Source of the DNA: a virus
Taxonomy: Duplodnaviria; Heunggongvirae; Uroviricota; Caudoviricetes
Strand: one strand, 5' to 3'
Length of the DNA: 6,370 bases
IMG/VR virus record: IMGVR_UViG_2737471855_000014
A model generated the notes under the pieces. That model saw only the letters and a program-made list of their open reading frames with translations. It was not told where the DNA came from and did no database searches. This document shows, piece by piece, positions 3,010-6,275 of this stretch. Numbering within the stretch: position 1 is the first letter of the stretch; each line of letters opens with the position of its first letter. The position numbers were made by a program, and so were the translations under genes.

Positions 3010-3180
3010 TTTGATGCTATTGCATTGATAATTCAGGAAAATTCTCTTTGTCTGTTTGTGTAAAATTTAGACTATCGTATGTTGATTATTGCGATGTTTC
3101 ATCTTATCTTTTACACGTTTGCACCATATAATCGACTTACTGTGTAACTGGAAAGTCATAACAGACTAAAAGAGGAAATG

Positions 3181-3354
3181 ATGAATATTGAAAACTTAAA
3201 AACAAAAGCAGAAGCAGATATTTCTGAATATATAACAAAAAAAATTATTGAACTTAAGAAAAAGACCGGGAAAGAAGTTACCAGTATTCAGTTTACCGCA
3301 CGGGAAAAAATGACGGGTCTTGAAAGCTATGATGTCAAGATTAATTTAATCTGA
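3181..3354 (+). CDS. gnsB: GnsA/GnsB-family small protein
   Basis: 57-aa ORF MNIENLKTKAEADISEYITKKIIELKKKTGKEVTSIQFTAREKMTGLESYDVKINLI, found by hand and too short for the supplied track. AGAGGAA 4-5 nt before the ATG at 3181. A TATAAT hexamer at 3127-3132 may be its -10. Matches my recollection of GnsB. Confidence 0.85.
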   Translation: MNIENLKTKAEADISEYITKKIIELKKKTGKEVTSIQFTAREKMTGLESYDVKINLI

Positions 3355-4207: not shown

Positions 4208-4374
4208 GAGGTTGCCCCGTATTCAGTGTCGCTGATTTGTATTGTCTGAAGTTGTTTTTACGTTAAGTTGATGCAGATCAATTAATACGATACCTGCGTC
4301 ATAATTGATTATTTGACGTGGTTTGATGGCCTCCACGCACGTTGTGATATGTAGATGATAATCATTATCACTTT

Positions 4375-4570
4375 ACGGGTCCTTTCCGGTGATCCGACAG
4401 GTTACGGGGCGGCGACCTCGCGGGTTTTCGCTATTTATGAAAATTTTCCGGTTTAAGGTGTTTCCGTTCTTCTTCGTCGTAACTTAATGTTTTTATTTAA
4501 AATACCCCCTGAAAAGAAAGGAAACGACAGGTGCTGAAAGCGGGCTTTTTGGCCTTTGTCGTTTCCTTTC
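4375..4570 (+). other. lambda-type cohesive end site (cosQ-cosN-cosB) in joined, prophage-form configuration
   Basis: 4371-4406 (...ACGGGTCCTTTCCGGTGATCCGACAGGTTACG) matches my recollection of the lambda right end. 4407-4418 GGGCGGCGACCT is the 12-nt cohesive-end sequence, followed by CGCGGGTTTTCGCTATTTATGAAAATTTTCCGG (lambda left end). cosB shows three (C)GTTTCC/GGAAACG Nu1-binding R elements near 4458-4466, 4519-4528 and 4557-4566, with an AT-rich IHF-type stretch at about 4474-4505. Confidence 0.85.
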
Positions 4571-4595
4571 TCTGTTTTTGTCCGTGGAATGAACA

Positions 4596-5141
4596 ATGGA
4601 AGTCAACAAAAAGCAGCTGGCTGACATTTTCGGTGCGAGTATCCGTACCATTCAGAACTGGCAGGAACAGGGAATGCCCGTTCTGCGAGGCGGTGGCAAG
4701 GGTAATGAGGTGCTTTATGATTCTGCCGCCGTCATAAAATGGTATGCCGAAAGGGATGCTGAAATTGAGAACGAAAAGCTGCGCCGGGAAGTTGAAGAAC
4801 TGCGGCAGGCCAGCGAGACAGATCTCCAGCCAGGGACTATTGAGTACGAACGCCATCGACTTACGCGTGCGCAGGCCGACGCACAGGAGCTGAAAAATGC
4901 CAGAGACTCCGCTGAAGTGGTGGAAACCGCATTCTGTACTTTCGTGCTGTCGCGGATCGCAGGTGAAATTGCCAGTATTCTCGACGGGATCCCCCTGTCG
5001 GTGCAGCGGCGTTTTCCGGAACTGGAAAACCGACATGTTGATTTCCTGAAACGGGATATCATCAAAGCCATGAACAAAGCAGCCGCGCTGGATGAACTGA
5101 TAACGGGGCGCACTTTGACGGTGACCAGAGCGGCACGGTGA
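4596..5141 (+). CDS. nohA: terminase small subunit (lambda Nu1-like) with a non-native C-terminal 12 residues
   Basis: 181-aa ORF starting MEVNKKQLADIFGASIRTIQNWQEQGMPVLRGGG, the Nu1 winged-HTH DNA-binding domain. Nu1-like through residue 169 (...AALDELI), then TGRTLTVTRAAR in place of lambda's PGLLSEYIEQSG. Directly downstream of cosB, as in lambda. Symbol is by position; the exact Qin paralogue is uncertain. Confidence 0.85.
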   Translation: MEVNKKQLADIFGASIRTIQNWQEQGMPVLRGGGKGNEVLYDSAAVIKWYAERDAEIENEKLRREVEELRQASETDLQPGTIEYERHRLTRAQADAQELKNARDSAEVVETAFCTFVLSRIAGEIASILDGIPLSVQRRFPELENRHVDFLKRDIIKAMNKAAALDELITGRTLTVTRAAR

Positions 5142-5401
5142 ATGGTGTCACGCCGCCAGCAGTTCAGCACCTGACCGCAGAAGTCACCGCAGACAGCGGG
5201 GAATACCAGGTGCTGGCGCGCTGGGACACGCCGAAGGTGGTGAAGGGGGTGAGCTTTATGCTTCGCCTGACCGTGGCAGCGGACGACGGCAGTGAGCGGT
5301 TGGTCAGCACGGCCCGGACGACGGAAACCACATATCGCTTCACGCAGCTGGCGCTGGGAAATTACAGGCTGACAGTCCGGGCGGTAAATGCATGGGGACA
5401 G
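5110..5401 (+). pseudogene. internal fragment of a J-like tail tip/host-specificity protein (gene remnant)
   Basis: Track frame 5138..5425 (GTG start) encodes [86 protein letters not shown]. By recollection this matches an internal region of lambda J (over 1100 aa). No credible start or Shine-Dalgarno. Bounded by junctions with Nu1 upstream and stf downstream. Confidence 0.65.
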
Positions 5402-5700
5402 CCGGTGCACATACCCATTCGATGACATTTGTTTCAGGTGGTTCCAGTGGTGCTCCGGGAAGTGGATCACCTGATTATTCTAAATACAGTGTTAACACTT
5501 CTTCTGCAGGCGCTCATACGCACTCTGTATCGGGTACTGCTGCAAGCGCAGGTGCACACGCACATACTGTCGGTATTGGTGCTCATACGCACTCCGTTGC
5601 GATTGGTTCACATGGACATACCATCACCGTTAACGCTGCTGGTAACGCGGAAAACACCGTCAAAAACATCGCATTTAACTATATTGTGAGGCTTGCGTAA
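5392..5700 (+). pseudogene. C-terminal fragment of a side tail fibre protein (Stf-like), possibly still translatable from a fortuitous ATG
   Basis: 102-aa frame with repeated G-A-H-T/A-H-S/T motifs and the conserved fibre C-terminus ...[24 protein letters not shown]. The N-terminal shaft portion of the fibre is absent. The stop overlaps the tfa start (TAATG at 5698-5702). Confidence 0.7.
5404..5622 (+). repeat. tandemly reiterated HxH tail-fibre repeat units (coding repeats)
   Basis: Five related 18-21-nt units encoding G-A-H-T-H-S-like peptides: GGTGCACATACCCATTCG (5404-5421), GCAGGCGCTCATACGCACTCT (5506-5526), GCAGGTGCACACGCACATACT (5548-5568), GGTGCTCATACGCACTCC (5578-5595) and GGTTCACATGGACATACC (5605-5622). 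Confidence 0.6.
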
Positions 5701-6275
5701 TGGCATTCAGAATGAGTGAACAACCACGGACCATAAAAATTTATAATCTGCTGGCCGGAACTAATGAATTTATTGGTGAAGGTGACGCATATATTCCGCC
5801 TCATACAGGTCTGCCAGCAAACAGTACCGATATTGCACCGCCAGATATTCCGGCAGGCTTCGTGGCTGTTTTCAACAGTGATGAGGCATCGTGGCATCTC
5901 GTTGAAGATCATCGGGGTAAAACGGTTTATGACGTGGCATCAGGGGACGCGTTATTTATTTCTGAACTCGGTCCGTTACCGGAAAATGTTACCTGGTTAT
6001 CGCCGGGAGGGGAATATCAGAAGTGGAACGGCACAGCCTGGGTGAAGGATACGGAAGCAGAAAAACTGTTCCGGATCCGGGAGGCGGAAGAAACAAAAAA
6101 CAGCCTGATGCAGATAGCCAGTGAGCATATAGCGCCGCTTCAGGATGCTGTGGATCTGGAGATCGCAACGGAGGAAGAAACCTTGTTGCTGGAAGCCTGG
6201 AAAAAGTATCGGGTGTTGCTGAACCGTGTTGATACATCAACTGCACCGGATATTGAATGGCCAGCACTGCCGTAG
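5700..6275 (+). CDS. tfaQ: tail fibre assembly protein (lambda Tfa-like chaperone)
   Basis: 191-aa [54 protein letters not shown]..., which closely matches my recollection of lambda Tfa along its length. The start overlaps the stop of the fibre fragment. Ends at TAG 6273-6275. Confidence 0.85.

Follow-up and report, generated by a model that had tools for sequence, protein, structure and literature searches.

The closest described relative of the locus examined here is the cryptic prophage Qin (Kim) of Escherichia coli K-12, which is inserted in ydfJ and carries, in order, essQ, ydfR, rrrQ, rzpQ, cspI, gnsB, ydfO, ynfO, nohA, tfaQ and pinQ. Its nohA is a homologue of nu1, the small terminase gene of lambda, and has a foreign C-terminus that results from a deletion of morphogenesis genes. 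A similar joint is present in DLP12, a different prophage at a different chromosomal site, in E. coli B (REL606 and BL21), C and ATCC 8739; here nu1 ends in ...CTGATA and is joined to the tail tip gene J, with the remainder of J and the tail-fibre genes intact behind it in REL606. The intact nu1 of DLP12 is functional once recombined into lambda (De Paepe et al., PMC3945230). The portion of Nu1 that interacts with the large terminase, TerL, is given as residues 100-181 in the part of PMC6739421 that cites Frackman 1985 and Wu 1988.

The window, by which we mean the whole 6,370-nt stretch of viral DNA analyzed here (IMG/VR record IMGVR_UViG_2737471855_000014), is identified by its gene order and sequence as the late region of Qin from an E. 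coli other than K-12. The ORF list and the sequence give the order holin, ydfR, lysozyme, an Rz-like gene, cspI, gnsB, ydfO, ynfO, cos, a Nu1 homologue, tail-gene fragments and a tail-fibre assembly gene. Many complete E. coli chromosomes are 100% identical to a 1,501-nt probe (window 4300-5800); the loci matched by this probe have the Qin gene order within ydfJ, the upstream Qin ORFs are in the window, and the K-12 feature 'cryptic prophage Qin' has the matching order. In FORC 064, whose copy of region 4300-5800 is 100% identical to the window, the annotation reads essD-ydfR-rrrQ-rzpQ-cspI-...-gnsB-ydfO-ynfO-nohA-(J-related pseudogene)-(tail fibre, partial)-tfaQ-pinQ, beside a truncated ydfJ. 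RefSeq names the 181-aa product nohA (WP_000453589.1) and places a 'phage tail tip protein J-related protein' pseudogene at window 5099-5401 and a partial 'tail fiber protein' at 5494-5700; with these three entries the nu1/J scar is already known. The features of the region are as follows.

4300-4595, plus strand: cos region of Qin (cosQ/cosN/cosB equivalent), about 98% match to lambda and relatives.
4407-4418, plus strand: 12-nt cohesive-end sequence GGGCGGCGACCT, by direct reading.
4596-5141, plus strand: nohA ORF, 181 aa, Nu1 residues 1-169 plus the 12-residue out-of-frame tail TGRTLTVTRAAR (ORF list, BLASTP, Pfam, RefSeq).
5099-5108, plus strand: junction overlap GATAACGGGG (three-way alignment, lambda sequence, limits of partial matches).
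5099-5402, plus strand: internal fragment of J with an Ig-like domain, lambda J residues 600-700, lambda nt 17302-17605 (BLASTP, Pfam, RefSeq).
5399-5402, plus strand: second junction, J to stf, microhomology CAGC (by comparison with lambda J and the stf of contig L095).
5403-5700, plus strand: C-terminal stub of the side tail fibre gene stf (BLASTP, Pfam, RefSeq).
5700-6275, plus strand: tfaQ, tail fibre assembly gene, intact (ORF list, Pfam Caudo_TAP at 148 bits, RefSeq).

Two further observations concern the ORFs of the window. The gnsB ORF (3178-3354) encodes 58 aa and has a double ATG start; in RefSeq the gene is frameshifted in FORC 064 and intact (174 nt) in F829, FDAARGOS_1337 and K-12. 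Antisense ORFs on the minus strand at 4497-5036 and 4715-5470 (179 and 251 aa), which are entries of the ORF list only, overlap nohA and the J fragment.

The nu1 part of the locus is almost unchanged from lambda. Over the 809 nt of window 4300-5108, identity to lambda and its relatives is about 98%, and the matching stretch in phage DE3 carries a 'cos site' annotation. The nucleotide alignment to lambda is near-identical from upstream of the ATG at 4596 to 5108 and unrelated beyond, with a single mismatch at position 5103 (A in the window, C in lambda). At the protein level, NohA and lambda Nu1 have 168 of 171 identities over residues 1-171 (BLASTP), and the Pfam model PF07471, Phage_Nu1, scores 336 bits against a cut-off of 30 and is covered over all of its 164 positions (1-164). 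Codon 169 is ATA (Ile) at 5100-5102, after which the native residues 170-181, PGLLSEYIEQSG, are replaced by TGRTLTVTRAAR, so that the ORF ends in ...ITGRTLTVTRAAR with its stop at 5139-5141. NohA has cos immediately upstream, as a lambda-type Nu1 does, and lacks the native C-terminus within the TerL-binding portion. Neither the window nor the 100%-identical genome locus contains an adjacent, overlapping large-terminase gene A, and J DNA lies directly 3' of nohA. Without gene A, and with residues 170-181 of the TerL-binding portion replaced, NohA would be unable to form a terminase; the N-terminal domain is essentially identical to that of lambda, so the product could at most bind cosB. The nu1/J joint is a scar, and would itself be a functionless by-product of deletion.

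In the J frame, which is read here from 5099, the translation of bases 5099-5401 is 90% identical to lambda J residues 600-700 (BLASTP, E 5e-66), and the fragment scores 124 bits against the Pfam family Ig_J. It consists of this one domain, has neither a start nor a stop of its own, and is not a full-length tail-tip J with its N-terminal tip domains and C-terminal receptor-binding domain. Since (5099-4596) mod 3 is 2, the nohA ORF reads the J DNA in another frame, for 12 codons. A three-way alignment of parental nu1 (...GAACTGATACCGGGGTTG), parental J (...CGTGGATAACGGGGCGCAC) and the joint of the window (...GAACTGATAACGGGGCGCAC) shows an overlap at 5099-5108 that agrees with nu1 GATACCGGGG at nine of ten positions and with J GATAACGGGG at all ten. 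The two parents therefore have an imperfect 10-nt homology, GATA(A/C)CGGGG, in which the perfectly shared stretch is GATA (4 nt), and as A5103 is the J-type base the crossover is placed within GATA, at 5099-5102. In lambda coordinates, 694-697 is joined to 17302-17305 and 16,608 bp are missing, a size that is approximate because lambda is only a proxy for the intact ancestor of Qin. Of 5,426 complete E. coli genomes, 52 match a 100-nt junction probe in full, and the identity of the joint in these genomes shows that it is not an assembly artefact; among the partial matches, genomes with J alone match from 5099 on and those with Nu1 alone up to 5108, which brackets the overlap at 5099-5108.

These results largely confirm the sequence-only reading of this DNA, which had proposed a deletion junction between Nu1 residues 1-169 and J DNA in another frame. 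The nucleotide and protein alignments with lambda nu1 and J bear out the junction, the position of codon 169 and the origin of the last 12 codons, and the search for a breakpoint microhomology that it had suggested yielded GATA. It had also held that cos and the DNA-binding part of Nu1 were kept, in agreement with the lambda identity and the complete Phage_Nu1 match, and that the extreme C-terminus was replaced, which fits a swap of residues 170-181 inside the TerL-interacting residues 100-181 as stated in that part of PMC6739421. Its estimate of about 17 kb missing is close to the figure found here; its description of the loss as 'A through most of J' overstates the share of J, about half of which (599 of 1,132 residues) lies upstream of the breakpoint. 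A full-length natural Nu1 variant with no J downstream, named there as the finding that would count against it, is not what the alignments show. The end of the J fragment, which that reading had not treated as a second deletion junction, is resolved here as a joint of J and stf at 5399-5402.

At this second junction the homology to J ends with CAGC (5399-5402). Lambda J at the joint reads ...GGGGGCAGC followed by AGGGCG (extended, ...GGGGGCAGCAGGGCG), and a longer copy of stf in metagenome contig L095 reads ...GCTGCTTCAGC followed by CGGTGCAC (extended, ...GCTGCTTCAGCCGGTGCAC). To judge from these two parental sequences, the junction is a separate deletion with a 4-nt microhomology, which took out the remainder of J together with lom and most of stf, a loss of roughly 4 kb on the lambda map. 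The stf stub has 74% identity to the C-terminus of lambda orf-314 (BLASTP) and a Pfam Phage_fiber repeat. Both joints have the form of microhomology deletions, in which one copy of a shared stretch is left: GATA between nu1 and J, and CAGC between J and stf.

Three proteins (P0033, P0004 and P0006) are near derivatives of the window junction that differ by a 1-nt or 2-nt indel. The indels put the Ig-like domain of J in frame and give Nu1-J fusion ORFs of 275-276 aa; in two of these proteins, which lie on short metagenome contigs, the indels may be sequencing errors.

Comparison with other copies of Qin shows that the interval from nohA to tfaQ has at least five structural alleles in complete genomes, namely the window type and those of F829, FDAARGOS_1337, 21EVA and K-12. 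In the nohA-stfQ-tfaQ-pinQ segment of K-12 the break in nu1 is later than in the window (after ...SEY, in the DNA after ...GAATATA, lambda about 720) and leads straight into stf, so that K-12 has no J fragment but a NohA of 189 aa and a StfQ of 320 aa, whereas the window breaks at codon 169 and retains 304 bp of J and a 298-bp stf stub (5403-5700). In 21EVA, nu1 is joined to the portal gene, C, D and part of E are kept, and E is then joined to stf. The two remaining alleles are nearer to that of the window. FDAARGOS_1337 reads ...CTGATA followed by CCCGAACACGG, with J from lambda 16140 and 1,166 bp more than the window, and F829 reads ...CTGATA followed by ACGGCTGGG, with J from lambda 16727 and 579 bp more. 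Both have flanks 100% identical to those of the window, the same J/stf junction and the same nu1 endpoint. Two perfect copies of an 8-bp sequence, GATAACGG, lie exactly 579 bp apart in the F829 allele, and two copies at this spacing are given for the longer allele L003 as well. The allele loci are the following.

L002 3785-3810; L003 3785-3810 and 4387/4966; L006 5040-5060; L005 5790-5870 (minus strand): loci of the alleles.
L007 6031-6060 (REL606 DLP12) and L003 3785-3815 (FDAARGOS_1337 Qin): shared nu1/J junction.

The longer J in the sister alleles and the repeat spaced at 579 bp suggest that the junction of the window may be the last of several steps, and the different scars in other copies indicate that Qin decayed independently in several lineages. 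The nu1/J junction of FDAARGOS_1337 is also that of DLP12 in E. coli B (REL606, BL21), C and ATCC 8739, at 98% identity, where J resumes at lambda 16140 as against 17306 in the window; a probe for this junction type matches 66 genomes over at least 80% of its length. The presence of one nu1/J junction in two prophages at different chromosomal sites implies either exchange between prophages or recurrent origin.

The nu1 endpoint itself is used far beyond these alleles. It reads ...GAACTGA-TA/CC (lambda 695-697, window 5100-5102; surroundings lambda 692-699, window 5097-5104), with the flanks ...GAACTGATA on the left and TACCGGGG... on the right, and an end at ...CTGATA is common to about 47 distinct joints, representing more than 40 rearrangements, in Qin, DLP12 and other lambdoid prophages of E. 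coli. The set comprises proteins P0002-P0113 and loci L001-L003, L006-L009, L011, L012, L015-L026 and L095-L158. Among the 120 cluster representatives of the NohA protein search, about 31 distinct C-terminal continuations begin directly after ...AALDEL(I), as compared with about six that begin in codons 170-181, three after AAL and about seven near residues 140-150. Nucleotide scans of IMG/VR and metagenomes for GCGCTGGATGAACTGATA followed by a base other than C added further partners after chance matches were filtered out; most of the 67 hits in the metagenome scan were chance 18-mers in unrelated bacteria and were removed by a filter on upstream identity. On the lambda map the partners fall between 751 and 22390, in A, B, C, E, FI, Z, V, K, I, J, lom, stf and tfa. 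Some right-hand partners lie outside the morphogenesis region.

The joints at this endpoint have a common form. Among the 29 cases whose partner has a usable reference, TA precedes the partner in 23, frequently within GATA or GGTA, in a part of lambda in which TA is rare (686 sites in 22.3 kb); beyond TA the flanks are only modestly more similar than in permutations (p = 0.007 on the left and 0.047 on the right). In the protein-derived set the shared bases reach to the left of A697 and almost never to its right. Mirror-image joints, which would retain the right side, TACCGGGG..., were sought in IMG/VR and none was found, all hits being natural nu1 alleles. As a background, at least 120 IMG/VR contigs have an intact site, and about 22 scattered breaks with 0-7-nt microhomologies occur in 336 kb downstream; with these intact contigs as the background, position 697 is enriched by a roughly estimated two to three orders of magnitude per nucleotide. 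The right-hand endpoints are scattered, and in a rough hand comparison, made for clustering as a sign of serial re-firing, their gaps are not clearly different from random spacing, except in lom and J. For the partners E-6595 and A-2179, the site is the left anchor in one genome and the right partner in another. The stf site GGGTA/ACCGCGCTGACAG is joined to three left anchors: nu1-720 in K-12, nu1-697 in L124 and gene E in L221. Joints at this stf site are found at L005 (K-12 nohA/stfQ), L124, L221 and L008 (about 9600), and each left anchor ends in TA.

We propose that the locus is the decay scar of the cryptic lambdoid prophage Qin, and consider this very probable. Short-homology (illegitimate) deletion from nu1 after codon 169 to the middle of J removed the large terminase, all head genes and most tail genes; a separate deletion at a 4-nt microhomology brought the J fragment to the 3' end of stf; and the nohA ORF now runs from intact Nu1 coding sequence into wrong-frame J DNA and stops after 12 codons. 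Both joints resemble the products of short-homology illegitimate recombination, or microhomology deletion, in E. coli, which share 2-10 nt and lose the interval; ordinary deletions of this kind, with 0-7 nt of microhomology, occur often in the corresponding region of other E. coli lambdoid prophages, and Pfam confirms the identity of all four pieces. For the present nu1/J joint two origins are possible: the final loss in a nested series, or a separate hit on the same nu1 hot spot. Such a series would lead from the FDAARGOS_1337 type through the F829 type to the window, its final step being the loss of 579 bp between the two copies of GATAACGG.

The sequence-only reading had instead invoked one deletion. 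If Qin was otherwise intact, a single loss of 16.6 kb between nu1 GATACCGGGG and J GATAACGGGG could have made the joint directly, with the 4-nt perfect and 9/10 imperfect homology of the parental sites to guide it, and a one-step deletion between nu1 GATACC and J GATAAC would yield the identical sequence. As the nu1 site is a recurrent endpoint with many partners, independent hits in J are plausible. However, two alleles that retain 579 and 1,166 bp more of J have the same nu1 endpoint, J/stf junction and flanks, and the perfect 8-bp repeat accounts for the 579-bp step, which makes the word 'single' doubtful; we place the direct origin from an intact Qin somewhat short of even odds. With regard to the joint of the window as such, one step and several steps appear about equally likely.

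Two further explanations were considered. The ORF has the 181-aa length of lambda Nu1, as a natural variant might, and the joint of two phage genes could in principle be an assembly chimera of two prophages; yet J homology runs 300 nt past the break, no large-terminase gene lies downstream, and 52 finished genomes of unrelated origin carry the identical joint. The continued J homology and the recurrence refute both forms of this explanation, to which we attach next to no probability. The truncated NohA might alternatively be under selection, for instance as a decoy that binds cosB, is incompetent as a terminase and interferes with the packaging of infecting lambdoid phages. Retention of the full Phage_Nu1 domain and of cos at about 98% identity to lambda would suit such a role, as would the many independent prophage remnants that hold exactly Nu1 residues 1-169 and the location of the TerL-binding region within residues 100-181 in the cited part of PMC6739421. 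Selection on a protein would not, however, give nucleotide-precise, TA-anchored endpoints, and K-12 keeps Nu1 through residue 176 while other remnants have it intact, so that this explanation seems improbable.

What makes the nu1 endpoint recur is a separate question. We tentatively suggest, at close to even odds, that nu1 697 is a site-specific, one-directional deletion hot spot, at which a recurrent DNA 3' end, nick or break would be joined, by a TA-anchored microhomology of 2-6 nt, to almost any TA further to the right. In contrast to random microhomology sites, the nu1 endpoint is reused far more often and in one polarity only. The data are described best by a fixed 3' end priming on TA-anchored microhomology; an origin of this end in a nick, a pause or a pseudo-end is speculation. 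The candidate causes are a pseudo-site for a nuclease or transposase, an IS since lost with IEE-type repair, template switching at a replication pause, and homology-facilitated joining of a defined DNA end.

Several specific causes were sought. IEE-assisted IS excision, in the account of PMC9943667 that cites Kusumoto 2011, proceeds from one fixed endpoint to distal ends between a few nt and more than 40 kb away, with microhomology end joining; the nu1 hot spot likewise has a fixed endpoint, variable distal endpoints and microhomology joints. That route needs an IS, and none was seen at lambda 695-699 among about 47 junction variants, at least 120 contigs with an intact site and Sakai Sp4. The lone documented IS in nu1, ISEc8 in Sakai Sp4, is mid-gene at about nt 276, away from the hot spot; the known IS30 target of lambda (LHS) is at lambda 33244-33498, outside nu1; and at the joint of metagenome contig L150 an ISAs1-type transposase is nearby, yet the joint is not at an IS end and the 3' part of nu1 does not follow. 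A hairpin or cruciform was also rejected, as lambda 650-770, folded as DNA, scores no better than shuffled sequences (z = 0.19) and there are no relevant inverted repeats. The lone exact canonical Chi of the window (GCTGGTGG, plus strand, 1323-1330) is 3.8 kb upstream, inside the lysozyme gene rrrQ. The sequence GCTGGATG at 5087-5094 agrees with Chi at six of eight positions and lies 4-6 nt before the hot spot; we know of no evidence that this Chi-like sequence is active, and mention it as an idea only. For Din-family (Pin/Gin/Hin) crossover sites, the lambda att core, the cosN half-site, phiX-type nick sites and the gyrase consensus, the likeness is weak or the register wrong, and none of these was adopted. 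A literature search found no paper on a deletion hot spot in nu1, although older lambda genetics is perhaps thinly covered by it.

Taken by itself, the nu1/J junction shows no more than the route by which one Qin lineage shed its virion genes; it is of use as a way into the pattern of endpoints. If the hot spot is real, much of the erosion of lambdoid morphogenesis modules would start from one nucleotide position. If the underlying event is a defined DNA-breaking or strand-switching one, the large number of E. coli genomes with Nu1(1-169) fusion ORFs would be explained, and the domestication of E. coli prophages would in part be channelled by a specific mechanism, as opposed to random decay.
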